From positions 3,693 to 67,692 of the forward strand of contig CAYUKQ010000003.1 of NCBI GenBank assembly GCA_964445355.1: DNA of 64,000 nt, read 5' to 3'. This document shows positions 129 to 55,118 of the stretch, piece after piece. The position numbers and the translations under genes were made by a program. How positions within the stretch are numbered: the stretch's first letter is position 1; each line of letters opens with the position of its first letter. Source of the stretch: an uncultured Gammaproteobacteria bacterium (GTDB lineage Bacteria; Patescibacteriota; Microgenomatia; CAYQLK01). The notes below the pieces were generated by a model that was not told the DNA's origin, ran no database searches, and saw only the letters and a program-made list of their open reading frames with translations.

Positions 129-139
129 ATGAATAAAAT

Positions 140-180
140 ATCCCGTAGTATTTGATAAGAAAGAAATAAAATGTTAAAAT
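140..180 (+). promoter_or_regulatory. Motif-promoter module copy 1: ATCCCGTAGTA then TTGATA -35, 17-nt spacer, TAAAAT -10
   Basis: Hexamers and spacing read from the sequence; same module recurs at about 870, 2228, 5977(-), 41534(-), 46903(-), 59161 and 62961(-). Confidence 0.55.
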
Positions 181-225
181 ACTGCTTCGCAACTTCACAT
201 TTTCTGGCGAGGTGAGAGTGTAGCT

Positions 226-786
226 ATGGTTGCCGTGTCTGTTGACTTAGTCGGACATCGGTTCGACTGGGGTCACACTGACAGGGTGTGGCTCTATAAT
301 CAATTTATCACAGCTTGCCGTAAGGCAGGCCTTGATATTCGCATGACTGAGACCATGTTCAAGCTCAAGATCGGAACCCGGAACGAGTTTCTGGTTTTTG
401 ATTTTGCACGCTTTGTGACGGATCCGTCTCAGTCCCAGTACGTGCCGTTGGTTGCGGATGTCTACATCAGCTACTCAGACGATGAGGGAGTCGAGCATCT
501 CATCCGTCCAGCTGTTGTGGCTCGCGATCACAGCAAAGATCGGCACCCGATCGGGTGGGCATTCGAGACCGGCCGATTGATTCGGTACAACGGCCGTTTT
601 CAGACGTTCACTGTCGATTTTGGAGAACCGATCAGGTATATCCGTCCCAGAAAAAGTCGGCACCGTCCCAAGTATTTCGCTCTCGGTTCGGTAATTTTGG
701 CCTTTTACTGGGTCAAAAAATACCTTGCCAAACGAAGGAAAAAGAAACGATCCGAGCGTCATTTGTCGTCTAAGAGCGGCAAGTGA
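226..786 (+). CDS. Hypothetical protein, GC-rich (about 55% GC), C-terminal hydrophobic anchor plus basic tail (KRRKKKRSERH)
   Basis: ATG ORF of 186 aa, own promoter upstream and terminator downstream; composition differs from backbone; no recognisable domain. Confidence 0.6.
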   Translation: MVAVSVDLVGHRFDWGHTDRVWLYNQFITACRKAGLDIRMTETMFKLKIGTRNEFLVFDFARFVTDPSQSQYVPLVADVYISYSDDEGVEHLIRPAVVARDHSKDRHPIGWAFETGRLIRYNGRFQTFTVDFGEPIRYIRPRKSRHRPKYFALGSVILAFYWVKKYLAKRRKKKRSERHLSSKSGK

Positions 787-828
787 TCTGGGGGTTTCTG
801 ATTTTGAGTGGAGGTGTTAGCGACCTTT

Positions 829-862
829 GCGCTCTAGGTAATAACTAGGGCGCTTTTTTTTT
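829..862 (+). terminator. Rho-independent terminator (gcgctctag / ctagggcgc stem with one G-U pair, then T9)
   Basis: Hairpin followed by T-run immediately after the 226-786 stop. Confidence 0.65.
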
Positions 863-889
863 GCAAACTATCCTATAGTTTGATATAAT
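861..889 (+). promoter_or_regulatory. Promoter TTGCAA-N17-TATAAT with ATCCTATAGTT element (870-880) inside the spacer; GGAGG RBS at 915-919
   Basis: Consensus hexamers with 17-nt spacing; motif copy 2. Confidence 0.55.
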
Positions 890-925
890 CAGCCTTAAGA
901 ACGTTTAAATTCTGGAGGCTAGCTC

Positions 926-1345
926 ATGCCAACTTTGATGGTCATGGTCCACGACCATCGGCAGGTGTTCGTGAAGGGTGAGTTCGGGCTTCGCGCGGAT
1001 TTTGCTGCCAGCCTGGTCGACGGCGGGCTTGGGAATAGCTTCCGCTTCCATGGCCTGCCGATTACAGAAGCATACTTTCACATCGACGGAGATGCGGAGG
1101 TGCTAACGATCAGGTTGCACCCGCAAGATGATCGGGTCAACGGTGTTGATCGGCTTGAGTTGGTGTTCGATCACGACTCCAATAAGCCTTTCTATGCTGT
1201 TTACTCCCGCTTGTGTGCGTGTGGGGCTTACCAGTTCCGCGTACGCCATTCGGAGGCAGATTTGACTCACACTCTGAGTCGGATCGTGGTCTCGTATCGT
1301 GAAGTTCGCTTAGCAGAATCGGACGCCTCAACAGTAAAGCCGTAA
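926..1345 (+). CDS. Hypothetical protein, GC-rich cassette gene
   Basis: ATG ORF of 139 aa preceded by GGAGG 7 nt upstream and followed by a terminator; no recognisable domain. Confidence 0.6.
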   Translation: MPTLMVMVHDHRQVFVKGEFGLRADFAASLVDGGLGNSFRFHGLPITEAYFHIDGDAEVLTIRLHPQDDRVNGVDRLELVFDHDSNKPFYAVYSRLCACGAYQFRVRHSEADLTHTLSRIVVSYREVRLAESDASTVKP

Positions 1346-1361
1346 ACGCTCGTATTTCTCT

Positions 1362-1398
1362 GTGGCATCTGACTATTAGTCGGGTGCCACTTTTTTTA
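1362..1398 (+). terminator. Rho-independent terminator (GTGGCA...TGCCAC stem then T7)
   Basis: Inverted repeat plus T-run directly after the 926-1345 stop. Confidence 0.6.
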
Positions 1399-1415
1399 TG
1401 GTTTTTTCTTCAATC

Positions 1416-1444
1416 TGGACAAATTAGGCCTAGAGTATTAGAAT
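1416..1444 (+). promoter_or_regulatory. Promoter TGGACA-N17-TAGAAT followed by ATCCCGAG (partial element)
   Basis: Hexamers and 17-nt spacing read from the sequence. Confidence 0.45.
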
Positions 1445-1489
1445 ATCCCGAGCACTTTTGCAAAAAGAGAGGTTCGAAGCTAACTTGCC

Positions 1490-2107
1490 GTGGTTGAAGT
1501 GAAAACGGTTCGGATCCCGGTGTCGCAGGTTAACCGCGACAGATTCAGACACACGACCAGCAACGTTTTCGCGTGGCCGGACTTGGTGACTCAGCTCATC
1601 ATGTCCTCGTCGGCGGTCTTGGGGCGCAACAAGCCGGATGTCAACACTTTGGTGCTGGCCCGGGTCGAACAGGTCAGGCTGGATCAGCGGTTGCTGCTGC
1701 GATTCGTTGCGGCTGGCAACAACGAGGATTTGCACTTGGCGGGTGTGCGGATCGAGCACGGGAGCGAACGATTGGTTACTCCAATGGTTCTCGATTCGAT
1801 GCCGATGATGGCAGCCGTCAAGGGTGTGGCCGGCGTGCCTGGCCAGACCAAGCCACACCATGGTTTTGCCGTGGCATCGCTCAAGGGTATTCTGCCTCAG
1901 GCGCGTGCTTTGGTGCTTCAGCTGCAAGTCCCGCAAGGGGCGGAGGGGCACGTTTTCGGTTGTTTGGAGCCGGTGCGTGATTCGTCCGAGGGCGAAGAGG
2001 AAGTCGCGTTTTTCAGGCATCAGCGCAGATACCCGTCCGGCCAGGGGTACGCTCGGGTCCCTTCCGATGGACAGTATCCGTTGCGACGGCGGTTCACTCG
2101 GGACTAG
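1490..2107 (+). CDS. Hypothetical protein, GC-rich cassette gene (GTG start)
   Basis: 205-aa ORF co-oriented with flanking + promoters and terminators; the opposite-strand 241-aa ORF is R/H/Q-rich with no promoter and is judged spurious. Confidence 0.5.
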   Translation: MVEVKTVRIPVSQVNRDRFRHTTSNVFAWPDLVTQLIMSSSAVLGRNKPDVNTLVLARVEQVRLDQRLLLRFVAAGNNEDLHLAGVRIEHGSERLVTPMVLDSMPMMAAVKGVAGVPGQTKPHHGFAVASLKGILPQARALVLQLQVPQGAEGHVFGCLEPVRDSSEGEEEVAFFRHQRRYPSGQGYARVPSDGQYPLRRRFTRD

Positions 2108-2176
2108 CTCCGAGAAGACTGGTATTGCGATCGAGCAAGCAAGCCGCGTCTGCAACTTGTGCGGATCGAAACAAAG

Positions 2177-2214
2177 GGCGCCTCTGTAAAAAGAGGCGCT
2201 ATTTTTTATTTTAA
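2177..2214 (+). terminator. Rho-independent terminator (GGCGCCTCT...AGAGGCGC then TATTTTTTATTTT)
   Basis: Perfect 9-bp stem plus T-run after the 1490-2107 stop. Confidence 0.65.
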
Positions 2215-2227
2215 TGCTGATTTGGTT

Positions 2228-2268
2228 ATCCTGTAGTGTTGGATTTTTATTGTCGTTGTGGGTATAAT
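2228..2268 (+). promoter_or_regulatory. Motif-promoter module copy 3: ATCCTGTAGTG then TTGGAT, 18-nt spacer, TATAAT
   Basis: Read from the sequence; drives the 2351 gene. Confidence 0.55.
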
Positions 2269-2350
2269 CTCGGACTTAGTTCGTTAACAATCCTCGGGGC
2301 AGCCGAAAAAAGAAAGACAAAAATTCACCGCAAGCAAGGAGTATACGATC

Positions 2351-2800
2351 GTGGGAGTACAAACTCGGGTAAGTCATGTCGACTTTCACACACCTCTTGA
2401 TCACAGGACCAGAATGGTTCTGGAAGGGGGGCAGTTTGAGGCCTGGATTTCGGCCCTGGTCAGGGCAATCCAGGACAGTCAGCCGATTTGGCACAAATCG
2501 GTCGATGGCGTCAGAGTCGAGCCGATCTATCGGATGTATTTTCCTTACCGCAAGTGGCTGATCTTTGGCCTGAGTCTGCCTGAAGGCGGGTCGGGACTGA
2601 AGGTGGTCAACATTGAGTTCCAAACAGATCACCCCAACGTTCCCATCATCAATTCCAGGGTTTTCCCAGAAGGAATTTCGGGGGGAGACAAATTCGTCGG
2701 ATGGCGTTATTTTGACGCTGTCGAACTTCGCGACTACGCCAAGCAGCTGACCGGAATCCATTTTTCGGTTGAGCTGGTAACCACACAGGAGGAGGTCTAG
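2351..2800 (+). CDS. Hypothetical protein, GC-rich cassette gene (GTG start, AAGGAG RBS 7 nt upstream)
   Basis: 149-aa ORF with strong SD; preferred over the antisense 301-aa ORF 2276-3181, which has no promoter or RBS. Confidence 0.6.
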   Translation: MGVQTRVSHVDFHTPLDHRTRMVLEGGQFEAWISALVRAIQDSQPIWHKSVDGVRVEPIYRMYFPYRKWLIFGLSLPEGGSGLKVVNIEFQTDHPNVPIINSRVFPEGISGGDKFVGWRYFDAVELRDYAKQLTGIHFSVELVTTQEEV

Positions 2801-2891
2801 GTTTATCAAAACGTTACGCATTCCCCTGAGGAACCGGCGGTATTGGTGGGCACGCCAGCCGCAAGATCGAATTCCTGTACTGCTAAGCGAC

Positions 2892-3251
2892 ATGATCAAG
2901 CAGTCGGAAGATCCTGAAGGAGCGCTGCAAGGACTGATCCTGAGAGTCGAAGAAGCCAAGATTTTCGGAGCGCGAGCGGTTGCGTTCCGCTTGGAACGTG
3001 CTTTTAGTCGGGGGCCGAAGTTTGCGGCGAGAGTGTATCTCGAGTCTCTTGATGGGGTACGGTTGGAGGCTGCACCGTCAGCCGGCATCGACGGATCGGG
3101 AACGGGTAACCGGATTTTCATGTACAAGGAGTTCTTGACCGCTTTGGGTTCGGCAGATTGTCTGGTTTTTGAGGTCGACACTCTTGACTCTAATCCAGGC
3201 GTGTTTGTTCGAGCACTCCAGTCGGTCGGCAGCCGCCTCCGAAGATCTTGA
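2892..3251 (+). CDS. Hypothetical protein, GC-rich cassette gene
   Basis: 119-aa ATG ORF, co-directional and followed by a terminator. Confidence 0.55.
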   Translation: MIKQSEDPEGALQGLILRVEEAKIFGARAVAFRLERAFSRGPKFAARVYLESLDGVRLEAAPSAGIDGSGTGNRIFMYKEFLTALGSADCLVFEVDTLDSNPGVFVRALQSVGSRLRRS

Positions 3252-3269
3252 ACAGCAAAAGAGCAATAT

Positions 3270-3303
3270 GGGTACTTGTAGAAATACAGGTACCCTTTTT
3301 TTG
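3270..3303 (+). terminator. Rho-independent terminator (GGGTAC...GTACCC then T9) closing the five-gene GC-rich cluster
   Basis: Hairpin plus T-run; GC content falls to backbone level right after. Confidence 0.65.
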
Positions 3304-3511
3304 GATCAGGAGAGTGATGATTAAGACAAAGGATTTTGGTTGCATACTAAATATTGGTGTGGTTATATGAATATATGGGAGGAAATCTGTTGCAGGTTAC
3401 CCTAAATGTATTGTTGGAATTGATATTTTGCCTGGGTCTGGTAGTCGTGTTTTTCCTAAAATTGCGATTTTTTAGTTCAAGTCTATTATTTTCAAACAAA
3501 GGGAGAAAAAA

Positions 3512-5128
3512 ATGAAAAGAATGTTAAAAAAAGTATATTTTGCCTTGATTTCGGTTTTTGCGGGGACTGTGTTAGCCACAGTGGCTGTAAGGGCGGCAGA
3601 CACGACGATCGTGGTGTTACCGGGCGATATGGCGACGAGTGTGGCAGATGTGATTGCAGATCCCAGTAAGTGGATGTTTTATAACGATGAAACTGACACA
3701 ATTGACAATTCACTTGGGTCGTTTGTTTTGGGCCCGGGAGTTACCCCGCTTGGTAATGATAGTATCCAGATCTCAGTCAGCGGTACTCAGAGGCGTAATT
3801 TGGCGACTTATCAATTCAGCGGTACGACCTTGTCTTCAATTACCGAGCTTAAGTTTAGTACTTTTAACCCATCGGCAGGAAATGGCGGAAGTGCCAGTCG
3901 TTCAGGATACTTGCATTTCAACGCAGATTTTAACGGTTCGGATACTTGGCAGAGAAGGTTGGTCTATGTGCCGTCCGTGAATGGGGCAGTGATACAGGAT
4001 ACTTGGCAGGAATGGGATGCAATAGATGGGGGAAATGCAAAATGGCTGTATTCCGGTTCAACCTGGCCGGTGACCGGGGAGCCGGGTTCGACGACAAAGA
4101 CTTGGAGTCAAATATTAAGTGACTATCCGTCGGTCAGGATGCGGGTTACAGATTCATTCTTGGGAATTCGTGTCGGTGAGCCGTATGCTGACGGATATAC
4201 AGAAAATATTGACGGTTTTAAGTTAGGGGTGAGTGGAAATACTAAGATATTTGATTTTGAGGCTTCGGTAGCGCCGGGTGTTCCGACAATTATTTTGCCG
4301 GCAAATAATGCTACGGTGACGAGTTCGGCACTAGTTAAGATCGATTGGACGGATTCGACTGGCGGTTCTAATCCACCGTTTGAATATATGTATGAAGCAT
4401 TTAACGATGCCGGGTATACGACGAGTATTTATACCAGCGCGTGGTTGTCAGTCTCCGAAATACCCACGCCGGGTACGTCACCTGGGGTATATTACGTTCG
4501 AGTTAAGGCTAGAAATGCATTAGGTGATGAGACTGCTTGGAGTAATGACGCCGTTAATCCATACAAAATTACGGTCATTGCTGATGGTCCGGTCTTGGTT
4601 GGGCCACCAACAGATAAGAATCAGTGCAAGAGGAACGGTTGGAGGGTATTTAATAATCCAACGTTTATCAATCAAGGTCAATGTGAAAAGTACGTTAAAG
4701 ATCACAGAGATGATGGCAAGGCGGAGGGGGATTTGCGTTTGATCAATCCTAATCAGAGGATCAAGTTCAAATTATCAGAGAAGGATGTCTCAAACTCTAA
4801 CCATCACAAATCAAAACATAATTATGTTGAATACTGGAATTATGAATATCCTGGTATTTTGCACTACAAAGCAAATGTGATCTGTGCTGAGGTTGATAAG
4901 ATCACAAAAGAAGCGCGTTTTGTATTCCAAATTCCACCAGGTTGGCCAGGTCTAACGGGCTTATATGTAACTGCTTATGTTAAGGATACGAAACAAAAAG
5001 GTGTTGCTGATCTTTATGGTCATGCAGCAACCGGTGATCTGACGATAGCTACGGCTTGGTGTGATACTGGTGTTGGGTTTGCTCCGGCAATGTACTCAGT
5101 TGTAAAAGGTAAAGTTGAAGTGAAATAA
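3512..5128 (+). CDS. Large secreted or surface protein (538 aa) with N-terminal signal peptide, Thr/Ser/Gly-rich beta-type repeats and C-terminal cysteines
   Basis: Signal peptide MKRMLKKVYFALISVFAGTVLATVAVRAA; GGAGAAAAAAATG RBS; backbone GC. Confidence 0.7.
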   Translation: MKRMLKKVYFALISVFAGTVLATVAVRAADTTIVVLPGDMATSVADVIADPSKWMFYNDETDTIDNSLGSFVLGPGVTPLGNDSIQISVSGTQRRNLATYQFSGTTLSSITELKFSTFNPSAGNGGSASRSGYLHFNADFNGSDTWQRRLVYVPSVNGAVIQDTWQEWDAIDGGNAKWLYSGSTWPVTGEPGSTTKTWSQILSDYPSVRMRVTDSFLGIRVGEPYADGYTENIDGFKLGVSGNTKIFDFEASVAPGVPTIILPANNATVTSSALVKIDWTDSTGGSNPPFEYMYEAFNDAGYTTSIYTSAWLSVSEIPTPGTSPGVYYVRVKARNALGDETAWSNDAVNPYKITVIADGPVLVGPPTDKNQCKRNGWRVFNNPTFINQGQCEKYVKDHRDDGKAEGDLRLINPNQRIKFKLSEKDVSNSNHHKSKHNYVEYWNYEYPGILHYKANVICAEVDKITKEARFVFQIPPGWPGLTGLYVTAYVKDTKQKGVADLYGHAATGDLTIATAWCDTGVGFAPAMYSVVKGKVEVK

Positions 5129-5162
5129 CAGCGTCTAAACTAGCTTTTTAAGTTAAAAGTTA

Positions 5163-5200
5163 AGAAAAAACCCGCTCGTGCATGTAAGCATAAGCGGGTT
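5163..5200. terminator. Bidirectional intrinsic terminator (AACCCGCT...AGCGGGTT stem flanked by A-run and T-rich tail)
   Basis: Hairpin between convergent genes 3512-5128(+) and 5286-5819(-). Confidence 0.6.
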
Positions 5201-5285
5201 GTTGGTTGTTGTGGGGGTCAGAAGCTTGCTGATCTTTCGAGCGTTTCTGGCCCTCTAGGCTGAACGGCCCGGAGGAGTCGTGCTG

Positions 5286-5819
5286 CTAGGGATGGAAGAA
5301 GTGGGCGACGAGGTTGCCTTTGTGGCTCTCGGTCAGTACATGGTATTCCCACGTGCCCCAGATCGACCATTCGGGATTGCCGACGTAGCGCGGATCGTTT
5401 TGGCTAACGATTTGGTAGTGATACGCGCCGTTGCCGTCGTATCCGCTGCAGTGGATCATGTTCGAAATGACCCCATGGTCCATGTAGGGGTCGTTGTTGA
5501 AGTCGCCCTTGGTGTGGATGCGATAGAAGCAGGTCGAGAGTGTGTCGGCGTCGAGGTCGGCGATTTCGGTGATGCCGGGAGAAGTGTAGACTCGCCCATC
5601 GCCGAGATCCCAGTAGTAGTCACCTGTCGCGTCGTAGGCGTAGATGCTGTCGTACGTGCACACGACCTGGACACCGGCATCGCCGATGCCGTTATGGTCG
5701 GTGTCCCCGTTGCGGGGAATCATGCAGTTCGTGTTCTTGCCGCCGGCGGCCGAGACGGTCGCGGTTGTGACGAGCATGAGGCAGAAGAGTGCGGTGGTGA
5801 TCAGGATGAGTTTACGCAA
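5286..5819 (-). CDS. Secreted small Cys-, Asp- and Gly-rich protein, GC-rich cassette gene (TTG start, signal peptide)
   Basis: N-terminus MRKLILITTALFCLMLVTTATVSAAGG; about 58% GC; own promoter and terminator. Confidence 0.6.
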   Translation of the reverse strand: MRKLILITTALFCLMLVTTATVSAAGGKNTNCMIPRNGDTDHNGIGDAGVQVVCTYDSIYAYDATGDYYWDLGDGRVYTSPGITEIADLDADTLSTCFYRIHTKGDFNNDPYMDHGVISNMIHCSGYDGNGAYHYQIVSQNDPRYVGNPEWSIWGTWEYHVLTESHKGNLVAHFFHP

Positions 5820-5947
5820 GGTCAGAGTTACTCCTGTTTTTTGCAGAGATGTGAAAGATCAAAATGTTTCGCCCCCACGGCGGAACAAGTGCATTTTTGA
5901 CCAGAGCCAGCGGTTAAGCAGGTCCGGATCAATCAGTGCGATTGCGA

Positions 5948-5990
5948 ATTATAGGTTATAAATCTGTGATAATCAATCGTAAAAGGATAT
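5948..5990 (-). promoter_or_regulatory. Motif-promoter module copy 4 (minus strand): ATATCCTTTTACGA then TTGATT-N17-TATAAT
   Basis: Reverse complement of 5948-5990 read directly; drives 5819->5286. Confidence 0.5.
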
Positions 5991-6016
5991 TAGTAAATTT
6001 TTGCTGTGTTTGAAAA

Positions 6017-6697
6017 CTAGATCAGGTTTAATACTGCCTTTATGGTTTCTGAATCGAATAGGATTTTGTGATGACCTCGAACTGCAGAGGTTTGGTTAAT
6101 TAAGGCGGTGGGAAGCCTGCTTTTGCGCGGATGCCAAACATGATTATCAAAAGTCGGAATAATGGTGCATATTTTGCTGTCAAGATCACATTTGCTGCTT
6201 AGGTTAAGTATAGTTTCACTTTTTGGACGAAGTTCTTTGAATGGTTTGCCGATTAAATATTTTGTTAAGGTTGAGCCGTGAAATGGTGTGGCGATCGCGA
6301 TGACTTTTTTAATTCGAGGAGAAACTGAGGAGTGGTTAAGCAGGTGTTTAGCGATTAACCCCCCTTTGGAGTGGGCGACAATGACTACTTCGTCTAAGGA
6401 ATTATCAATAATTATTTTTTCGATAATTTTTGATTGAGCGGGGACAGATCCGAGATTATGTCCGAGTTCCGGGGCGATATAGACTGGGTGGCCGGTGAGA
6501 GAAATAGAGTCGCCTAATTTTTTCATAAACCCCCATTTGAGGGTGACACCCTGTATCAAAATGACTGGACTTTTGCCTCTGATTGTATGACCGAGATAGT
6601 GCTTGGGTGGTTTGCGGTATTGGTACATCATTCGCCAGCCGTTGGCCATATAAGCGTAGTCAATGGTCCAGTAGATTATTTTTTTAAGTTTTTTCAT
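6017..6697 (-). CDS. Alpha/beta-hydrolase lipase or esterase (class-2 lipase-like, AHSKGG nucleophile elbow)
   Basis: AHSxGG motif as in Bacillus LipA-type lipases; 226 aa. Confidence 0.6.
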   Translation of the reverse strand: MKKLKKIIYWTIDYAYMANGWRMMYQYRKPPKHYLGHTIRGKSPVILIQGVTLKWGFMKKLGDSISLTGHPVYIAPELGHNLGSVPAQSKIIEKIIIDNSLDEVVIVAHSKGGLIAKHLLNHSSVSPRIKKVIAIATPFHGSTLTKYLIGKPFKELRPKSETILNLSSKCDLDSKICTIIPTFDNHVWHPRKSRLPTALINQTSAVRGHHKILFDSETIKAVLNLI

Positions 6698-6793
6698 ATT
6701 TGTACTAAGTAGTCGTGTGAAATCAATTAATTATGAGTGTAACTTATTTTTATGTTAGTCTGAGCTATAAGGTGTGAAAATTATATAAGTGGA

Positions 6794-7552
6794 ATGGAAA
6801 ATGGATGGTCAGAGACAAATACTCCGAATCAGTTTAGCGGAAATCCTGATGGTGGTGTATTAAGAGGGTTACATTTTAATTTGATCGCAATATTATCCAT
6901 TGTTGTGGCAGTGATTTTTTTGGTGATGTCCTTTGTAATTTGGAGAGGTTTTTTTGTTGCTTATGAGACGGGTGGTGATATTTTCGAGTCGAACTCAAGG
7001 GCTATAAATAGTGAGTTAGACAAATCGGTTGAGTTGGCTAAGGTTGAAACGGGTGTCCCGTCTAATAAGGACCTGCTGCAGATCATGCAATATCAGGATT
7101 GGGAAATATTTGTTGATGAGCAGTACAAATTCCAACTGCAATATCCAAAAGGGTTCGCTGTGGTCAGGCAGGCGGTAGGTGCCAATGATGATACGGTCGA
7201 ATATCAGCGGCTGTTTGTTGGGGCTGGGGATCAGATCAACCCGCCATTTGCAACCAATGGAATAGGTATGACGGTTTTGCTTTTTAAGACTGACAAAAGT
7301 TTTGACGAAATAATTCAGGTAGTTACTGATCAGTTTTTGGGAAGTGAGGCGGTATTGTCTGACTATGAAATCGAAGATGGGGTGGTTGGTAAACAGCTCG
7401 AGTTTGTGACTCCGGACAAACAGAAAGTCATCCAAAGATATTTCAAAGCTCATCTTGATAATTATTATTATGAAGTCAAGGTGATAGTTGACGGAGAAAG
7501 TTTTGAATCGACTGCCAGAAAGATGATAAATACTTTCAGGATTGCAAAGTAA
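6794..7552 (+). CDS. Hypothetical membrane-anchored protein (single N-terminal TM helix)
   Basis: 252-aa ORF with TM segment IAILSIVVAVIFLVMSFVIW. Confidence 0.55.
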   Translation: MENGWSETNTPNQFSGNPDGGVLRGLHFNLIAILSIVVAVIFLVMSFVIWRGFFVAYETGGDIFESNSRAINSELDKSVELAKVETGVPSNKDLLQIMQYQDWEIFVDEQYKFQLQYPKGFAVVRQAVGANDDTVEYQRLFVGAGDQINPPFATNGIGMTVLLFKTDKSFDEIIQVVTDQFLGSEAVLSDYEIEDGVVGKQLEFVTPDKQKVIQRYFKAHLDNYYYEVKVIVDGESFESTARKMINTFRIAK

Positions 7553-7683
7553 TTAAATACCGAAAAATACCCGAACATGTGGTAGGATAACGGAATGCAA
7601 TCGCGAGCAGTAAAAAATAATCACTCAGGACTTTATATAAATCCCTACGTTTTATTTTTACTGCCTGAAGAGAATATAAATAT

Positions 7684-8832
7684 ATGATTCCGTTAGCAGC
7701 AAAAATCAGACCAGCTGATCTGAGTGGATTTGTCGGACAGAAACATCTTGTTGGCCGAGGCAAGCCACTAAGAGTCGCGATCGACAAAAAACACTTGTTT
7801 TCCTTTTTGTTATGGGGACCACCTGGAGTCGGTAAGACAACCTTAGCTAGAATTTATGCTAGAACTTTGGGTGCTGAGATTTTTGAATTATCTGCGGTTT
7901 CTGCCGGCAAGGATGACATTAAAAAAATCTTAGGAACTGATGAACGCCAGCAGTCTTTGGCACCTAAGGTGCTGTTTTTGGATGAAATTCATAGATTTAA
8001 TAAAAGCCAGCAGGATTTTTTGTTGCCTTATGTTGAGAGCGGAAGATTAACACTTATTGGTGCGACAACGGAAAATCCAAGTTTTGAAGTTATTCCAGCA
8101 TTGCTTTCAAGATGCAGAGTTTTTACCTTGACCGCTTTGAATGAAAAAGAGATGGATGAGATCATTAATCGGACAGGTATGGGTTTGGACGATGAGTCGA
8201 GACGGTGGCTGATCGCGATGTCTGATGGTGACGGACGTCAGGCAATAACAATGTTGGAGAATACGCACGATCTATATGGAAAGATCACTTTAGAAAATCT
8301 CAAAAAAACACTTCAGAATAAATTCCTCCGCTACGATAAGGCCGGGGAAGATCATTACAATACGATCAGTGCTTTTATTAAAAGTATGCGAGCAGGGGAC
8401 GCTGATGCGGCGATTTATTATTTAGCCAGAATGATCGATGCGGGTGAAGATCCGAAATTTATTGCCAGACGTATGGTGATATTTGCTTCTGAGGATGTCG
8501 GATTGGCGGTACCGACTGCATTGGTGGTAGCAAATGAAGTATTTAGAGCGGTTGAAACTATTGGTTATCCGGAGTGTGGAATTAATCTGGTTCATGGGGT
8601 GGCGTATTTGGCTTGCTGCAAAAAAGATAGAAGTGCATATGATGCTCTCCAGGAAGCACTACTTGATGTAAAGAAACTTGGTAATTTGCCAATACCACTT
8701 AAAGTTAGAAACGCTCCGACGAAACTGATGAAGGAAATGGGGTACGGGAAAAATTATGAGATGTACGACAAAGAATCTCTATTGCCTGGCGAGTTGAGTG
8801 GTAAGAAATATCTTAAGAGAAAATCTGATTAG
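7684..8832 (+). CDS. rarA: Replication-associated recombination protein A (AAA+ ATPase RarA/MgsA)
   Basis: Walker A LWGPPGVGKTT and RarA-like C-terminal region. Confidence 0.85.
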   Translation: MIPLAAKIRPADLSGFVGQKHLVGRGKPLRVAIDKKHLFSFLLWGPPGVGKTTLARIYARTLGAEIFELSAVSAGKDDIKKILGTDERQQSLAPKVLFLDEIHRFNKSQQDFLLPYVESGRLTLIGATTENPSFEVIPALLSRCRVFTLTALNEKEMDEIINRTGMGLDDESRRWLIAMSDGDGRQAITMLENTHDLYGKITLENLKKTLQNKFLRYDKAGEDHYNTISAFIKSMRAGDADAAIYYLARMIDAGEDPKFIARRMVIFASEDVGLAVPTALVVANEVFRAVETIGYPECGINLVHGVAYLACCKKDRSAYDALQEALLDVKKLGNLPIPLKVRNAPTKLMKEMGYGKNYEMYDKESLLPGELSGKKYLKRKSD

Positions 8833-27513: not shown

Positions 27514-28386
27514 GTGGTAGAAAGAAAGGTCATGACGGTAACTCCCTGGGACGCGAAAAGCCGTATCGTTGTCGCGCTCGACACACAAAGGATCGAGGAG
27601 GTGACAGCAATCGTCACCGAGCTCGCTTCCTACGTCGGTTTGTTTAAAGCCGGATTCGAGTTGACGAATGCGGTTGGAACCGAACGGGCTCATCGAGCCA
27701 TCAGAACTGCCGGGGGCGAGGTCTTTGCAGATCTTAAGCTTCACGATATTCCCAACACGGTGTCAAAAGCCGTGCAGGCTGTTGTGGGCTTCGGTCCGCG
27801 GATGACCAACATGCACATCCAGTCCGGCGATGAAGCGATGCAGAAGGCGGTATCCGAGCGTGGTGAAAGTCAACTGCTTGGGGTATCCGTTCTGACGTCG
27901 TTGACACCACTCGAAGTTTTAGAGATGTTCGTCAGACCGTTCGTCCAGGCTATCGGCGGTGACGAGTCAGCGTTCGATCTTGCAGTTTACGGCAGTCTTG
28001 TCGACGAAGACAGGACAGTAAAACCTGTTGGGTCGACACTTCAGTCAGAGTACATGCAGAGGTTGGTGCTTGGTTTTGCCGAAAAGGCGGCCAAAGCTGG
28101 CCTTGACGGACTGATCTGCTCTCCAAAAGAGCTATCATACCTGAAGTCGCACGGATCACCTGCAGTACAGCGTTTGGTCAAGGTGGTACCGGGTATCCGT
28201 ATGGTTGACGGTCAGGTTGATGATCAGAACCGTGTCGGTACGCCATATCAGGCAATCGTCGACGGGGCGGATTATCTCGTGATCGGCCGTCCGATTTTGC
28301 AAGCATCCGACAAGGTGGCTGCGGCTCAGGCGTTTGCTCGCGAGATCGAGTCGGCGCTCAAAGACATGGAGACGGGACAAGATTAA
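27514..28386 (+). CDS. pyrF: Orotidine 5'-phosphate decarboxylase (long form), GC-rich; probable true start ATG 27532
   Basis: VVALD and FADLKLHDIPNTV OMP decarboxylase motifs; about 57% GC. Confidence 0.85.
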   Translation: MVERKVMTVTPWDAKSRIVVALDTQRIEEVTAIVTELASYVGLFKAGFELTNAVGTERAHRAIRTAGGEVFADLKLHDIPNTVSKAVQAVVGFGPRMTNMHIQSGDEAMQKAVSERGESQLLGVSVLTSLTPLEVLEMFVRPFVQAIGGDESAFDLAVYGSLVDEDRTVKPVGSTLQSEYMQRLVLGFAEKAAKAGLDGLICSPKELSYLKSHGSPAVQRLVKVVPGIRMVDGQVDDQNRVGTPYQAIVDGADYLVIGRPILQASDKVAAAQAFAREIESALKDMETGQD

Positions 28387-28413
28387 GCGAAGAAAGGTAG
28401 AGAGGAGTGGCAG

Positions 28414-29073
28414 ATGACAAGTGATGAACGGGTACTGCGCCAGCTTTTGACCGAGACGGGTGCGTTGGTTGTCAACACACACGTCAAATTGGCCTCGGGC
28501 AGACACAGTGACCGATACATCGAAAAAACAGCCCTTTTGAGAAGGGCGGATCATTGCCAGGTCATCGCTGACATGATCGTTCAAAACTTCATTAACAAAG
28601 GGGTCGAAGTGGTCATCGGGCCCGCCATTGGCGCGGTTGGACTAGCCGCTATTGTCGCCCTGAGAATGAGTCAGGGGCGGATTGGTTCGGCTAACGTCGA
28701 ATGGGGGTTTGCAGAGCCGGTTCGTGATTCCGGTGGCCAGCTGGTCCTCTACGAGCTGAAGCGCGGATTCGCGCAGATGGTTGAAGACAAACGTGTGCTG
28801 GTGGTCGAGGATATCGTAACCTCGGGCATATCGAGCAATCTGGTTGTCAAAGCCGTGCGAGCAAATCGTGGCAAGGTTGTAGGCTTGGGTGTCATTATCA
28901 ACCGTGGGAGAGTAACTTCTGCGGATGTTGGACATCCGGGCAGTTTTCGGCCGCTGATGACGGTTGATATGCCAAGCTATGATTCCGAGGACTGCCCTCT
29001 GTGCCTCAGAGGTCTGCCGATCAGTACGCAGTATGGTCACGGCGGCAAAGCCGTGCTGCCGGCCTCGATCTGA
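28414..29073 (+). CDS. pyrE: Orotate phosphoribosyltransferase, GC-rich
   Basis: PRTase motif VLVVEDIVTSG; about 57% GC. Confidence 0.85.
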   Translation: MTSDERVLRQLLTETGALVVNTHVKLASGRHSDRYIEKTALLRRADHCQVIADMIVQNFINKGVEVVIGPAIGAVGLAAIVALRMSQGRIGSANVEWGFAEPVRDSGGQLVLYELKRGFAQMVEDKRVLVVEDIVTSGISSNLVVKAVRANRGKVVGLGVIINRGRVTSADVGHPGSFRPLMTVDMPSYDSEDCPLCLRGLPISTQYGHGGKAVLPASI

Positions 29074-40703: not shown

Positions 40704-40739
40704 AAGAAAAAGGCCCTGGTGCGTTTTGCACCAAGGCCC
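40704..40739 (-). terminator. Rho-independent terminator on the minus strand (GGGCCTTGGTGC-aaaac-GCACCAGGGCC then TTTTTCTT)
   Basis: 11-bp stem with one mismatch plus T-run on the reverse complement. Confidence 0.6.
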
Positions 40740-41497
40740 AGAGTTGTGGTCGGGGCGCAGTCCGTCAGGACCGAGCCCCGTCTATTTGCGGGTGGCATTT
40801 TCCGCTGCCGGCTTTGGCTCGCGATTGAGCCGGTGCCCACAGTCGGGGTTCATGCCCCCATGGTTTTACCTCGCGATCGAGGCCGCTGCCTTGTGCGTCA
40901 CGGCAGAAACGGTGGCGGCTGTTTTAAGGCGGCCACTTTTGGTCAATCGCAACGAGACTTTGTATCTCGGTGCGGGCCGGCCATATTCGCGGGCGGCCTT
41001 CGCTAGTGCCAGAGGATGACGGCACATTTTTGACATCTCCGGGGAGCGCGGACGGGCTGTCCGCGCTCCTTGCGGTCCCGAAAGCCCTCGGGACAACAGG
41101 TGAAAAAGGACAGGCACGGATAAGCCATAACCACTTTTTGCGCAGGTGGGTACCCGAGTCTCATGCGTAGAGACGCGAAGCCTGAACACCAGTGCTTGGT
41201 TGGTTTTGGCAGAGAGACACCAATTCTCTTCGTCCCCCCCCCAGAATAGGGAGTTCAGAGGAGTTATTAGTGTCAGCAAATCGTTCTCCTTGTCGATTCC
41301 GTGACGCATCCTGCCCCGCGCCCCTTTTCCCGACTAATCGGTAGGATCCCAGTGTGGGTAGTCCAGGGGGAAGCGCTTAGAGATATCAGTGTAAAAAACT
41401 GGATATTCCTAAGTGTTTCTCCCTGGATGGCTTTTGAAGCAGGAGTGCAAAGTCCTGATGATTTTTATATGTGCACAGCTAAAACAAATTAACTGCG
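40740..41497 (-). ncRNA. GC-rich (about 58%) transcribed unit of about 0.76 kb with no credible ORF: candidate structured ncRNA or decayed cassette. Contains a G9/C9 homopolymer (41234-41242) and two perfect hairpins (41043-41069, 41075-41094)
   Basis: Bounded by the consensus promoter (41504-41543) and the terminator (40704-40739); only ORF-like frames are low-complexity and overlap on both strands. Confidence 0.4.
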
Positions 41498-47729: not shown

Positions 47730-49505
47730 TTGCTAACCAAAAAATTTATGCCTGCTACTGCCCCCAATTTGGTTGGAGCGATGCAATCCGCTCCGGCTAA
47801 GACGCTTACGACAATCGAAGACATTCTGCTTAGTCAGAATATTCTCAAGAAAAAAGATTACGACCAGCTAAAGCTAGAGGTTGTTTCGACCGGTAAGAAG
47901 GTTGACGATCTTTTGAAAGAAAAAGAGCTGGCGACAGATCAACAAATAGCCGAGGCGAAATCGATCCTTTTTGGTGTCCCATATGTGCAGATCGCCGGTA
48001 AGACGATCTCGCCGGATGTTTTGACCCTGGTTCCTGAGCAGGTTGCCAGGCAGTACGGAATGATTCCATTTGAGAGACATTTGAATGATCTTTGGGTTGC
48101 GCTGGACGACCCGCTTAATCTTCAGGTTGTGAAATTCCTTGAGCAGCGGACAAATATGGGTATTAAGGTCTTTTTGTCCGGTGAGAATGAGATCAAGGAT
48201 GCGATTGCGCTTGCCTACTCCCAAAGTTTGACTGGTGATATTGGCGAGGTCTTGAAAGAGGCAAATACAAGTGTAGTCGCAAGTGAAGCTGGGGTTAATA
48301 AGGTCAAGGCTGAAACGCTTTATAATGCTCCAATTGCTAAGGTTGTTTCACAGCTTTTGGAATATGGAATCAAAATCAAGGCTTCAGATATTCATATTGA
48401 ACCAATGGAAGATAAAGTTCGCGTGCGATACCGAATTGATGGAATTTTGCATGAGAAATTGATTCTTCCGAAAAAGGTTCATGAAGCGATCACAACACGT
48501 ATCAAAATTCTGGCAAAACTAAAAATTGACGAAAAGCGTCTGCCACAAGATGGAAGATTTGATTTTGAATCGGGACAGGAGGCAATTGATTTGCGTGTAT
48601 CGAGTTTGCCGACGACTTGGGGAGAGAAAGTGGTTATGAGACTTCTTAAAAAGTCCGGAGGTATACCGACTTTGTCCGATTTGGGATTGAGAGGTTCGGC
48701 ATTAAAAAACGTTGAAACGCAATTGACACGTCCGCACGGCGTTATGCTTATTACCGGACCAACCGGGAGCGGTAAAACGACCACACTCTACTCTGCTTTG
48801 GCACGACTGAATACAGCAAAAGTCAACATTCTTACGCTTGAAGATCCGGTCGAGTACCAGATCGCCGGGGTTAATCAGGTACAAATCAATACCTTAGCCG
48901 GTCTTACTTTTGCTTCCGGACTGAGGTCTTTTTTGAGACAAGATCCCAACATTATTATGGTTGGTGAAATTCGAGACGAGGAAACCGCCGATTTGGCTGT
49001 GCAGGCGGCGCTGACTGGGCATATGGTTTTTTCGACTGTTCATACAAATAATGCCGCAGGGGCATTACCGAGACTGTTGGATATGAAAATTGAGCCTTAT
49101 TTGATCGCCAGTTCGATTACAGCCGTTATCGGTCAGAGGGTTGTACGTAAGATCTGTGTAAGTTGCCGGGAACAGTATATGCCGGTTCCGGAGGTGGCGA
49201 CGGATATCAGAAATGTTTTAGGTAAGCTTTTGGATATCAAATTAAGTCAGGGACAGATGATTCTCTATCGGGGAAAGGGCTGCGAGGAATGTAACGGCAC
49301 CGGTTATTTAGGGCGAATCGGTATTTATGAAGTATTAATTCTTAATGAAAAAGTCGGCAGATTGATTCTCGAACGGGAAACCAGCGAGTCGATCGAGCGA
49401 CAAGCAATTGAGGATGGAATGGTGACGATGAAGCAGGATGGGTATTTGAAGGTTGTCGAGGGTATTACGACGATCGAAGAAGTATTAAGGGTGGCCCAAG
49501 AATAA
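47730..49505 (+). CDS. pilB: Type IV pilus assembly ATPase PilB (GspE family) with N-terminal GSPII_E_N domain
   Basis: Walker A GPTGSGKTTT, Asp box, His box, tetracysteine CVSC...CEEC motif. Confidence 0.9.
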   Translation: MLTKKFMPATAPNLVGAMQSAPAKTLTTIEDILLSQNILKKKDYDQLKLEVVSTGKKVDDLLKEKELATDQQIAEAKSILFGVPYVQIAGKTISPDVLTLVPEQVARQYGMIPFERHLNDLWVALDDPLNLQVVKFLEQRTNMGIKVFLSGENEIKDAIALAYSQSLTGDIGEVLKEANTSVVASEAGVNKVKAETLYNAPIAKVVSQLLEYGIKIKASDIHIEPMEDKVRVRYRIDGILHEKLILPKKVHEAITTRIKILAKLKIDEKRLPQDGRFDFESGQEAIDLRVSSLPTTWGEKVVMRLLKKSGGIPTLSDLGLRGSALKNVETQLTRPHGVMLITGPTGSGKTTTLYSALARLNTAKVNILTLEDPVEYQIAGVNQVQINTLAGLTFASGLRSFLRQDPNIIMVGEIRDEETADLAVQAALTGHMVFSTVHTNNAAGALPRLLDMKIEPYLIASSITAVIGQRVVRKICVSCREQYMPVPEVATDIRNVLGKLLDIKLSQGQMILYRGKGCEECNGTGYLGRIGIYEVLILNEKVGRLILERETSESIERQAIEDGMVTMKQDGYLKVVEGITTIEEVLRVAQE

Positions 49506-49546
49506 ATAGATATGCAAGAATTGAATTACAAGTTAAAAACAAAAAT

Positions 49547-50608
49547 ATGATGTCGATACAGCAACTATTAGAGACGGTAATTAAAAAAGATGCAAGTGAT
49601 CTGCACCTGGTAGTTGGTCAGCCTCCGATGTATCGGGTCGATGGTGATTTGACGGCAATTCCAGGTGAGGATATTTTGACATTAGAAGCGGCTCAGGTGT
49701 TGATATTTGATCTGTTGACTAGCGAGCAAAAGGAGTTGATCTTGGTAAATAAGGAGTTAGATTTTTCTTTTGGATTGGGTGATGTAGCGAGATTTAGGGT
49801 GAATGCCTATTATCAAAAAGGTTATCTATCGGCTTCTTTGAGGTTGATTCCGTCTAATATTAAGACGATCGAAGAGTTACAGCTACCGAAGAGTTTGCAT
49901 AATTTTGCCAAGATGAGGCAGGGTTTTGTGCTGGTAACTGGTCCAACCGGCCATGGAAAATCGACAACTTTGGCTTCGATCATTAATGAGATTAATCTTG
50001 ACAATCCGATGCATATTTTGACGATCGAGGATCCGATCGAGTATGTCTATCCCCGAGGAAGGGCACTGGTTTCACAGCGTGAATTGCATTTGGACACGCA
50101 TTCCTGGGATATTGCCTTGCGTTCTGCTCTGCGTGAGGATCCTAATGTAGTTTTGGTTGGTGAGATGCGAGACTATGAAACGATTGCGGCGGCATTGACA
50201 ATTGCCGAGACCGGACATTTAGTGTTTGCGACGTTACACACTAATTCTGCTTCACAGACTATCGATAGAATTGTGGACGTTTTTCCCGAGAACCAGCAGG
50301 AGCAGGTCAGGATTCAACTTAGCAATACCCTAGCCGGAATTGTTTCGCAGCGATTGATGCCGGCAATGGGCGGAGGGCGAGTTCCGGCGGTTGAAATATT
50401 AATCGGAACGCCGGCGATCAGGAATCTGATTCGCGAGGGTAAAACTCACCAAATTGATTCAGCACTTCAAACGTCGAGTGAGCAAGGCATGGTTACGCTT
50501 GATGCTTCACTTGCAACTCTTATTAAGGCTGGCAGGATTTCTGAAGAGGTTGGACTTTCCTACTCGACCAGGCCAGATCAGTTAATGAGATTAGTTAGAG
50601 GCGTATAA
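49547..50608 (+). CDS. pilT: Type IV pilus retraction ATPase PilT
   Basis: GPTGHGKSTT Walker A, PilT-type AIRNLIREGK motif. Confidence 0.9.
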   Translation: MMSIQQLLETVIKKDASDLHLVVGQPPMYRVDGDLTAIPGEDILTLEAAQVLIFDLLTSEQKELILVNKELDFSFGLGDVARFRVNAYYQKGYLSASLRLIPSNIKTIEELQLPKSLHNFAKMRQGFVLVTGPTGHGKSTTLASIINEINLDNPMHILTIEDPIEYVYPRGRALVSQRELHLDTHSWDIALRSALREDPNVVLVGEMRDYETIAAALTIAETGHLVFATLHTNSASQTIDRIVDVFPENQQEQVRIQLSNTLAGIVSQRLMPAMGGGRVPAVEILIGTPAIRNLIREGKTHQIDSALQTSSEQGMVTLDASLATLIKAGRISEEVGLSYSTRPDQLMRLVRGV

Positions 50609-50617
50609 AAATAATTA

Positions 50618-51829
50618 ATGGCAAATTTTTTATATACAGCTAAGGCGGTCAACGGAGATACCGTTAAGGGTTCGGTCGAGGCGAGTAATGTCGACCAGGC
50701 ACTTAACGTCATTCGTCAGAATAATCTAACCCCGATTACGATCACGGAGAATAAAAAAGGCGGACTGAGCAACCTGTCGTTTGGCAGTTTGTTCGGGAAG
50801 GTAAGCGAGGGTGATGTGGCGGTATTTACCAGACAGCTTTCAAGTATGGTTAATGCAGGCCTGCCTTTTGCTGAGAGCATGAATATTCTCAAAAAACAGA
50901 CTAAGAATGCGCATTTTTCTGCGGTTTTGGATCAAGTCGGAAAGGATGTTGAGGGTGGAATGAGTTTGGGGGGTGCGATGGGTAAGCATCCAGATGTATT
51001 CAGCCGTGTTTATGTAAATTTGGTTAAGGCTGGTGAGGCCGGTGGTGTGATTGATAAAATCTTTGCCAGACTGGCAGACTCTTTGGAAAAATCGCGAAGC
51101 TTCCATAGTAAAGTAAGAGGAGCTCTACTCTATCCGGCTATTTTGTTAGTACTGATGTTTGTAGTTATATTTGTGATGATGGTTTTTGTGATTCCTAAGC
51201 TAGCAGATCTTTACAAGGACATTGGTGCGGATCTGCCGCTGCCGACATTGATACTGATCGGAGTGTCTGAGTTTTTTGTTAATTTTTGGTATCTGATTAT
51301 TGGTGGTGTGGTGGGGTTGGTATTTTTTTATCAATATTGGGGTAAGACCGAATCGGGACGGGCGTTCTTTGATGATTTGAAGCTGAAAATTCCGGTATTT
51401 GGAAGAATAAATCGGGGAATAATCTTAGTGGAATTTACCAGAACTTTAGGATTATTGCTTGAGGCCGGAGTGCCGATAATTGAGTCATTAAGAATCAGCA
51501 CAGGCATTGTAAACAATGTTAATTATGAGAAGGAGCTCTATTTGTCGATCGACAAGATCGAAAAGGGAGCACAATTGTATGATCAGATCGATCAGTCCGA
51601 TATTTTCCCTCCGATCGTTTCGCAGATGGTAAAAGTGGGTGAAGAAACCGGTAAGCTGGATGACGTATTGAATCGTTTGGCGAATTATTTTGAAGCCGAG
51701 GCTGATCAGCTGGTGAAAAATGTCACTACGGCTCTGGAGCCGTTTATTTTGGTTATCTTAGGATTAGGGGTGGGGTTATTGGTTATTTCGATTATTCTGC
51801 CAATCTACAATCTTACAAGCAAATTTTAG
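50618..51829 (+). CDS. pilC: Type IV pilus platform protein PilC (GspF family)
   Basis: Duplicated GspF domain, three TM segments. Confidence 0.9.
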   Translation: MANFLYTAKAVNGDTVKGSVEASNVDQALNVIRQNNLTPITITENKKGGLSNLSFGSLFGKVSEGDVAVFTRQLSSMVNAGLPFAESMNILKKQTKNAHFSAVLDQVGKDVEGGMSLGGAMGKHPDVFSRVYVNLVKAGEAGGVIDKIFARLADSLEKSRSFHSKVRGALLYPAILLVLMFVVIFVMMVFVIPKLADLYKDIGADLPLPTLILIGVSEFFVNFWYLIIGGVVGLVFFYQYWGKTESGRAFFDDLKLKIPVFGRINRGIILVEFTRTLGLLLEAGVPIIESLRISTGIVNNVNYEKELYLSIDKIEKGAQLYDQIDQSDIFPPIVSQMVKVGEETGKLDDVLNRLANYFEAEADQLVKNVTTALEPFILVILGLGVGLLVISIILPIYNLTSKF

Positions 51830-51857
51830 AAAAATTCTTGAAAGGAGGTGAAATATT

Positions 51858-52409: not shown

Positions 52410-52490
52410 AGGTATGTATAGAAAAACTGCCCGTTTTCTATGGGTTCTAGGTATTGAGTTGTTCATAGGATAGACACTTACTTAGAATCC

Positions 52491-53111: not shown

Positions 53112-53142
53112 AATACTTCAAAAAGTTATAATCGCATTTAAT

Positions 53143-53922: not shown

Positions 53923-53978
53923 TTGCATAAGTTGGTGTTTGGACAAAAGCAGAAGTAAAAACTAATATTAAGTTAATT

Positions 53979-55116: not shown

Positions 55117-55118
55117 GT

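Follow-up and report, generated by a model that had tools for sequence, protein, structure and literature searches.

In Legionella, many of the Dot/Icm effectors controlled by PmrA and CpxR are monocistronic, fast-evolving orphans without classical signal peptides, and they carry a common cis-element and often an atypical GC content. The host-takeover module of the Bacillus phage SPO1 (gp37-60) packs small unknown proteins densely on one strand, many of them with their own strong promoter and terminator. Here we analyze a cluster of small, same-strand genes at the start of a 64,000-nucleotide stretch of contig CAYUKQ010000003.1 (the window, below), where an original prediction made from the sequence alone had seen five GC-rich genes as a candidate undescribed system. 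The cluster has features of both known systems. Like the Legionella effector regulons, it consists largely of monocistronic, fast-evolving orphans behind a common upstream element, some with basic C-terminal tails, and like the SPO1 module it is a dense same-strand array of small proteins with their own promoters and terminators. It also resembles integron cassette arrays, in which small, mostly uncharacterized open reading frames (ORFs) lie on one strand and are separated by hairpin-bearing spacers. At the level of single families, the AGNOSTOS survey of 'genomic unknowns' counted 54,343 lineage-specific unknown clusters in Patescibacteria (6,987 genus-level; PMC9132574), and novel families that are conserved in synteny and under purifying selection form a recognized category (FESNov, PMC10849945). 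The families of the cluster are like those of both surveys in that they lack annotation, occur only in a narrow lineage, evolve under purifying selection and keep their genomic context.

We interpret the locus as an old, vertically inherited cluster of about 7.5 kb and 12-14 genes that encodes co-regulated, fast-evolving orphan proteins in one genus-level Paceibacteria-like lineage, and we give this reading a probability of roughly 0.55.

The five genes and the island around them

All five ORFs lie on the forward strand exactly where they had been predicted, and the sizes of 119-205 aa were confirmed. ORF1 (226-786) encodes a protein of 186 aa with an isoelectric point (pI) of 10.2, which ends in a hydrophobic segment and a Lys/Arg tail. 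ORF2 (926-1345, behind a GGAGG ribosome-binding site) encodes an acidic, soluble protein of 139 aa, ORF3 (1490-2107) a basic protein of 205 aa with a predicted alpha/beta core (residues 1-160) and then a disordered Arg-rich tail, and ORF4 (2351-2800, behind AAGGAG) a protein of 149 aa. ORF5 was annotated from ATG 2892 to 3251. Upstream of them, the start of the window cuts a further gene on the same strand, g8, leaving its 3' end (…MARLPKIE*) at 2-28.

ORF1-5 are genuine protein genes under purifying selection. Each has the coding signature of high GC1, low GC2 and high GC3. In a relative with about 75% DNA identity (L003), g8, ORF1, ORF2 and the start of ORF3 occur in order, and the differences fall mostly at third codon positions. 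Compared with this relative, dN/dS in the annotated frame is 0.109 for g8, 0.094 for ORF1 and 0.101 for ORF2, against 0.97-2.8 in four of five other frames; the value was 0.2 in the antisense frame whose third codon positions coincide with those of the annotated frame. The remaining genes behave similarly, with dN/dS of 0.23 for ORF3 (versus L087), 0.125 for ORF4 and 0.157 for ORF5 (both versus L088).

Scaffold L001 matches the window at 99.2% identity, and subtracting 4774 from a position in L001 gives the position in the window. In L001, g8 is complete (4380-4802) and a GC-rich island at about 500-8050 (~7.5 kb) holds 12 small same-strand genes, none with a Pfam match. ORF1-5 are thus the 3' portion of an island of 12-14 genes that the start of the window cuts. 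The core order, g2-g3-F4-F5-g7-g8-ORF1-(F14)-ORF2-ORF3-ORF4-(F15)-ORF5-538-aa protein, is found with few gains and losses in at least eight loci. It recurs in L001, L087, L005, L006, L007, L085 and L091, and the more diverged L089 has a compact seven-gene version between cysS and the usual downstream genes, sharing the downstream neighborhood of a PGAP1-like hydrolase, RarA, VIT1 and CYTH-PRK. ORF2 is absent from L085, L089 and L090. The island is flanked on one side by a trypsin-like protease or cysS and on the other by the secreted 538-aa protein, and no integrase, transposase or tRNA target was found in these flanks.

The conserved flanking RarA/MgsA places the host in the Patescibacteria, in a Paceibacteria / Nealsonbacteria-like group. 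In the nearest species representatives (L005-L007), whose RarA is 88-89% identical, the island occupies the same place upstream of the 538-aa protein. Its proteins are only 27-58% identical across related genomes (33-58% in L005-L007), compared with 80-90% for the flanking genes. L005-L007, which are the closest representatives in GTDB, bear the record title 'uncultured Gammaproteobacteria bacterium'; gene content and RarA point to Patescibacteria/Paceibacteria, and the title is likely a taxonomic mislabel. The 538-aa secreted protein (3512-5128, forward strand), always found 3' of the island, is slow-evolving (80-82% identity) and has no Pfam domain. In L007 (7535-9217), an unrelated-looking sequence takes the place of its N-terminal half, and its C-terminal 278 aa are 91% identical.

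Consistent with the predicted lack of recognizable motifs, neither ORF1-5 nor the other island proteins gave a significant match in Pfam, NCBIfam, PHROGs, PADLOC or PDB-sequence profiles. Ten island proteins compared with PADLOC-DB at E ≤ 1 matched no defence system, and PHROGs returned nothing below E 0.05. Scans of IMG/VR with alignments of ORF1-5 found no relatives, nor did a pattern scan of the GTDB representatives with the ORF1 alignment. Among 5.8 billion proteins, ORF1 has two related clusters, the ORF3 alignment nine and the ORF4 alignment seven, and when the ORF3 profile was searched exhaustively with HMMER against 1.84 billion representatives, it matched four, all at E ≤ 2.6e-57, with no weaker matches. 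The JGI collection holds two loci among 241 million records; a first scan with the ORF1 alignment had found none. With no match to annotated families, homologues in a single lineage and purifying selection, the island genes appear from these comparisons to be lineage-specific orphans. Two outcomes that would have spoken against an undescribed system were confident homology to housekeeping proteins and a scattered distribution; we found no such homology, and the genes are clustered in the relatives. The fixed order and locus, the shared promoter motif described below and the lack of relatives among other organisms, viruses and plasmid-like sequences in these collections argue for old vertical inheritance rather than repeated acquisition.

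The island proteins are small (90-215 aa) and mostly soluble. ORF1 is paralogous to island gene g2 (29% identity, E 2e-19), and g3, g4 and g7 are likewise paralogues of one another. We rejected the idea that the island is a single diverged paralogous family at the sequence level, as an all-against-all comparison with hhalign linked only g2 with ORF1 and g3, g4 and g7 with one another. Hydrophobic segments take the form of an N-terminal helix in g2-type proteins and of a C-terminal segment with a basic tail in ORF1-type proteins. The C-terminal membrane anchor and basic tail proposed earlier for one of the proteins fit ORF1 and are kept in its orthologues, although the copy in the window falls under the standard transmembrane threshold. 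One paralogous pair may be membrane-tethered, g2 by its N-terminal helix and ORF1 by its C-terminal hydrophobic segment. A zinc-ribbon-like segment (CxxC…CxxC) in F5 weakly resembles ClpX-ZBD (E 0.14), and F5 is a candidate for a factor that binds the promoter motif described below. Where L001 has a single called gene, g6 (2998-3756, 252 aa), the relatives have F4 and the zinc-ribbon F5 side by side (L005 1167-1987, L087 2602-3546); g6 probably reflects a gene fusion, a frameshift or a wrong gene call.

AlphaFold2 (AF2) models were obtained for ORF3 (pLDDT 63, pTM 0.62) and for ORF4 (pLDDT 82, pTM 0.75), the latter a well-predicted alpha+beta / beta-sandwich. Secondary-structure elements follow one order in both models (beta-alpha-alpha-beta-beta-beta … beta-alpha-beta), and the same weak fold neighbors come up for each (TRAF/MATH, SIAH and WSSV-VP28), so the two proteins probably share one non-enzymatic alpha+beta / beta-sandwich fold. 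The modeled fold differs from TRAF/MATH-like beta-sandwiches (USP7 N-terminal domain, SPOP, TRAF6, SIAH1) and from WSSV VP26/VP28 by a two-helix insertion after strand 1. Neither protein matched Pfam MATH, and profile searches of PDB sequences gave no match for ORF4, only weak unrelated matches for ORF3 and no TRAF/MATH chain. A search of viral folds in BFVD with the ORF4 model found nothing at E ≤ 0.001. We also considered whether ORF3 belongs to the potato inhibitor I / chymotrypsin inhibitor 2 family (PF00280). The sole signal was a profile-to-PDB match at positions 28-69 (E 0.007); Pfam scans of four family members (E ≤ 10) were empty and fold comparison was unsupportive, and we ruled this homology out.

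A collection of orphans could also arise if the locus were a permissive nursery, in which unrelated young genes, formed de novo or by duplication, accumulate without a joint function. Every family is an orphan, GC-rich sequence keeps several frames of each strand open over long stretches, and the duplications (g2/ORF1 and g3/g4/g7) and lineage-specific gains and losses fit such a picture, as does the abundance of genus- and species-level orphan families in Patescibacteria (PMC9132574). However, dN/dS values of 0.09-0.23 are those of established, constrained proteins, the core order is kept in at least six genomes, the units have a common cis-motif and a common mRNA-folding property, and ORF3 and ORF4 probably have one fold. 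We consider a nursery unlikely.

Transcription units and a shared promoter motif

The original prediction gave each of the five genes its own promoter and terminator. Separate units are indeed seen for ORF1, ORF2 and ORF3, but a sequence scan found neither a terminator nor a promoter in the ORF4-ORF5 gap, so the five genes make up four units, with ORF4 and ORF5 sharing one. What stands is a set of real, uncharacterized, GC-rich and mostly monocistronic genes, supported by dN/dS and by the database negatives, that has not been described before.

All of the following signals are on the forward strand. The g8 terminator (89-128) is an imperfect hairpin, GGCATCTGA…TTTCGGATGCC, followed by TTTTTT; in the equivalent spacer of L001 (4803-4999), a T-run follows a -20.5 kcal/mol hairpin. 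The ORF1 promoter (140-180) consists of the motif ATCCCGTAGTATT abutting TTGATA-17-TAAAAT (152-180), a sequence kept in L003 and L087, and the unit ends at a terminator with a 9-bp stem and T9 (829-853) that is conserved in relatives. The ORF2 promoter (861-889) is TTGCAA-17-TATAAT with the motif TCCTATAGT within its spacer, and its terminator (1362-1390) has a 13-bp stem followed by T7. ORF3 has the promoter TGGACA-17-TAGAAT (1416-1444), with the motif GCCTAGAGT 2 nt before the -10 element, and a strong terminator at 2177-2200 that is supported by both the scan and the relatives. The promoter shared by ORF4 and ORF5 (2228-2268) combines the motif ATCCTGTAGTG, TTGGAT (2239-2244), an 18-nt spacer and TATAAT (2263-2268), in an arrangement that is the same in L005, L006, L007, L085 and L089. 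The terminator of this unit (3270-3295; 11-bp stem, then T7) is the 3' end of the island, and GC content drops to the host level beyond it.

The scan counted eight promoter-like sites, against 3.3±2.0 in shuffled sequence, and nine terminator-like sites, against 4.4±1.9. In the relatives, nearly every spacer holds a terminator hairpin (-14 to -23 kcal/mol) with a T-run behind it, and in most the motif comes next. These recurring terminator-plus-promoter spacers are stronger evidence for the unit structure than the scan counts. Most island genes would then be separate units with an intrinsic terminator each, most of their promoters carrying the motif. Separate units that share a conserved motif suggest genes that are co-regulated and yet have individually set dosages.

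The motif has the consensus NCCTRKAGTAtT and is clade-specific, promoter-associated and enriched in the island. Its distance to the -10 element is bimodal. Copies placed at 2-5 nt stand ahead of a TAnAAT -10 element, inside the spacer of a TTGACA-like promoter, and copies at 24-28 nt abut a TTGAY -35 element; the two placements are about two helical turns apart. In L005-L007, all 19 copies lie inside the island and none in the flanking DNA (roughly 14 kb per locus), and other Paceibacteria loci contain ten copies in 1.19 Mb. Sites in the window are at 140-156, 870-880, 1427-1437, 2228-2244, 36654 (+), 41542 (-), 46911 (-) and 59163 (+), the loci outside the island including an AT-rich stretch at 36.7 kb, a 793-nt GC-rich unit and a tiny GC-rich unit at 59.2 kb. 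The motif may bind a transcription factor, or it may be part of the promoter itself in this lineage. A phage-type promoter on the opposite strand (T7/SP6-like, ACTATAGG) was ruled out, as all copies are co-oriented with their gene at fixed distances to sigma-70-type -35 and -10 elements. The tiny unit (59163-59495, +) looks like an island unit in miniature, with the motif, TTGAAT-17-TATAAT, AAGGAG, a GC-rich (51%) region and a terminator. Its open frames extend over only 30-56 codons with no clear start, and it could encode a very small protein or a small RNA. Rfam gave nothing for the other motif-driven loci.

The ORF4-ORF5 unit departs from the one-gene pattern in a second respect. Conservation of the ORF5 protein reaches 29 codons 5' of ATG 2892, to about 2805, in every relative, and this extension is under purifying selection (dN/dS 0.205). 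A strong Shine-Dalgarno sequence, AGGAGGAGG (2787-2795), overlaps the end of ORF4, and an ATC codon lies 9 nt after it at 2805; in relatives, the aligned start has a Shine-Dalgarno sequence followed by CTG or ATA. L001, a 99%-identical strain, gained an ATG at the equivalent of window position 2826. A conserved, selected extension behind a Shine-Dalgarno sequence probably places the start of ORF5 about 29 codons earlier than annotated. ORF5 is thus probably a protein of 148 aa (2805-3251), the second gene of a bicistron, with the near-cognate ATC 2805 as its likely start codon. We rejected a +1 frameshift at AGGAGGAGG-GTC-TAG that would fuse ORF4 and ORF5, because in L005-L007 a gap of 85-183 nt, or the gene F15, lies between them, and each ORF5 there has its own Shine-Dalgarno sequence.

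Along the island, acidic proteins (pI about 5-6) alternate with basic ones (pI 9.5-11), as in g8 (4.9) and ORF1 (10.2), ORF2 (6.0) and ORF3 (10.0), and ORF4 (6.0) and ORF5 (10.0). The alternation could mark an array of antagonistic pairs, toxin-antitoxin or effector-immunity, in which each acidic protein neutralizes the next basic one. The tight ORF4-ORF5 bicistron, with its acidic-then-basic order and a second gene on a weak start, could fit a type II toxin-antitoxin module, and fast divergence with paralogues is also seen in immunity arrays. On the other hand, of the three pairs, ORF4-ORF5 alone is co-transcribed, a terminator and a promoter separate the members of the other two, and F14 and F15 interrupt the alternation. 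No toxin, antitoxin or immunity domain was found in Pfam, NCBIfam or PADLOC, and the proteins exceed the typical size of type II components. Moreover, L085, L089 and L090 have lost ORF2 and kept ORF3, which is unexpected if ORF2 were an obligate antidote. An array of this kind seems rather improbable to us.

Folded messages and GC content

The island stands out from its host in composition. The original prediction described a 3.2-kb block of 55-58% GC; the block is GC-rich, but only some of the ORFs fall in that range, 1-kb windows range over 48-55% and the spacers are AT-rich (34-47%). GC content is 51-60% in the ORFs, about 41% in the genome and about 39-45% in the background, which has a strong positive GC skew. 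Codon usage also forms a dialect of its own, with 9.9% Arg compared with 4.9% in the host and a preference for CGG, CTG, AAG and AAC.

The coding sequences are strongly folded as messages. Against shuffles that preserve both the protein and its codon usage, in small sets (20-30 each) and with orthologues that are not independent samples, the mean folding z score of island coding sequences is -2.76 (median -2.33), and all 39 sequences, from every family and nine genomes, are negative. Host genes average -0.21 (n=20, range -1.9 to +2.0; Mann-Whitney p = 4e-8). For ORF1, the window copy has z -3.75, and seven orthologues, some at only about 35% protein identity, range from -2.3 to -5.7. Whole units compared with dinucleotide shuffles reach z -7.7 for ORF1 and -6.2 for ORF2. 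Strongly folded island mRNAs are a new observation. Within subclades, ORF1 alignments give a structure conservation index (SCI) of 0.84 (z -4.5) and of 0.59 (z -5.8), compared with z -1.1 for a control gene; across subclades, SCI falls to 0.18 with a covariation term of -0.7 kcal/mol, and compensatory changes occur in only 19 of the 175 pairs predicted. Strong folding as such is maintained, not a particular structure.

These values raise the question of whether the units are mainly or additionally structured RNAs, either dual-function RNA/protein genes or non-coding RNAs misread as genes. The extreme whole-unit scores, the excess over codon-preserving shuffles, the subclade alignments and the compensatory changes all point that way, and so does a neighboring motif-driven unit of 793 nt that looks non-coding and is described below. 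Purifying selection that acts on one reading frame and paralogy between the proteins exclude a pure non-coding RNA, no unit matched Rfam, and the lack of a conserved fold between subclades fits generic stability better. We therefore regard a main or additional role as structured RNA as quite improbable. A ribosomal or other known RNA behind the GC-rich, multi-frame block was likewise ruled out, since Rfam 15 was empty at the gathering threshold and gave only terminator-like noise at E ≤ 10, and the coding constraint is frame-specific.

Returning to a protein-coding cluster of vertical descent, its composition need not be foreign. The elevation of both GC1 and GC3 and the shift from Lys to Arg fit selection for stable pairing, so that a foreign origin is not required, and we infer that the GC-richness comes from selection for stable, structured transcripts. 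The least probable alternative, a horizontally acquired island (mobile element, prophage remnant or defence cluster) whose genes are independent modules from a GC-rich donor, could draw on the unusual GC content and codon dialect, the gains and losses of F14, F15, g4, g5 and ORF2, and the small, uncharacterized, same-strand genes, but it is largely refuted by a locus and gene order that are constant across the clade, flanks without integrase, transposase or tRNA target, empty PADLOC, PHROGs and IMG/VR searches, the lack of a donor homologue among 5.8 billion or 1.84 billion proteins, host-like AT-rich spacers with a clade-specific promoter motif, and a high GC content that persists over divergence with dS > 1. 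The "independently acquired modules" of the original prediction accordingly do not hold up, given the same order and locus in at least six genomes, the shared clade motif and the absence of relatives outside it, and its suggested link to defence or mobile-element genes found no counterpart in PADLOC, PHROGs or the flanks.

Other GC-rich features also occur in the window. A secreted protein of 177 aa (5286-5819, reverse strand) has a signal peptide, five Cys and a GC3 of 0.81, compared with about 0.42 for the genome; it is 87-89% conserved in L005/L006, has two diverged paralogues in L008 and shows a folding z of -0.7. A second GC-rich block (55%; 27514-29073, +) encodes an OMP decarboxylase (PyrF) and a phosphoribosyltransferase (PRTase), which may be horizontally acquired genes for nucleotide salvage or synthesis. 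Directly downstream of gyrA lies the 793-nt unit (40705-41497, reverse strand; 56% GC), with a perfect TTGACA-17-TATAAT promoter (41532-41504) preceded by the motif CCTATAGTAT, a strong terminator (40739-40711) and a folding z of -10.6 against dinucleotide shuffles. Its longest ORF (147 aa) has no coding GC signature, no Pfam match and no counterpart in the protein collection, and Rfam gave nothing credible at E ≤ 10. This unit is a candidate for a novel, large structured non-coding RNA.

Possible roles and comparison with known systems

The multi-component system with separately tuned parts that had been proposed is consistent with the co-occurrence of the genes, their fixed order and their shared cis-element. 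Most likely, the island encodes a co-regulated, lineage-specific set of non-enzymatic binding or structural proteins with an unusual transcript design. Much more tentatively, these proteins could act at the envelope of the cell or where it meets a host organism or phages. More doubtful is a wider scheme, in which the island and the 793-nt RNA would form a new module of the candidate phyla radiation (CPR): a regulon of one-gene units defined by a clade-specific promoter element. Its transcripts, as ultra-stable or dual-function RNAs, would be selected for extreme structure, this selection would drive the GC content, and its orphan beta-sandwich proteins would act jointly at the interface between symbiont and host or phage. 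Type IV pili are typical of episymbiotic CPR bacteria and provide context for hypotheses of host interaction. The window contains a type IV pilus cluster (47730-57670, +) with PilB-like and PilT-like ATPases, PilC, a prepilin peptidase, PilX-like and PilM proteins, and a pilin that bears an N-methylation motif.

Several observations weigh against our reading of a co-regulated cluster and against these roles. The promoter motif also stands upstream of the NUDIX-gyrB-gyrA unit and of loci outside the island; the clade may use it at strong promoters in general, and it need not signal a dedicated regulon. The excess of folding is weak in two of the window's own genes (ORF3, z -0.5; ORF5, z -0.4), and the unrelated GC-rich PRTase coding sequence is also over-folded (z -3.1); the small size of the folding sets and the failure of the ORF1 structure to carry across subclades count on the same side. 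Finally, no signal peptides were found on most island proteins, which makes a role at the envelope or host interface speculative.

Regardless, the lineage keeps about 1% of a tiny CPR genome for fast-evolving, tightly organized proteins that resemble nothing known, and their retention under purifying selection in a reduced genome suggests a function central to its lifestyle. If our interpretation is correct, the motif offers a handle on the transcription signals of an uncultivated phylum. Selection on mRNA structure, not horizontal transfer, would then explain a GC-rich island, which would affect how compositional 'islands' are read more generally.

Each of the closest described systems differs from the cluster in defining features. 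Legionella effectors are dispersed, whereas the island is contiguous and syntenic, has no linked secretion machinery or regulator, and shares its motif with the gyrase operon. The island is chromosomal and syntenic across a genus, in contrast to the SPO1 module, with no relatives in PHROGs or IMG/VR and no phage structural or replication genes nearby. Unlike integron arrays, it has spacers made of an intrinsic terminator and a sigma-70-type promoter instead of attC, with a promoter on every unit in this comparison, it has no IntI in its flanks, and its gene order is kept between species. By these sequence comparisons, the cluster does not appear to be a defence system, a phage module, an array of integron cassettes or a member of an Rfam RNA family. 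Compared with the AGNOSTOS and FESNov surveys, 12-14 contiguous families in fixed order, mostly monocistronic, with a common motif, a GC shift and folded mRNAs are not described there. Orphan families themselves are commonplace; what is unusual here is their contiguity, their arrangement mostly as one-gene units, the motif confined to their clade and their GC-rich, folded mRNAs.

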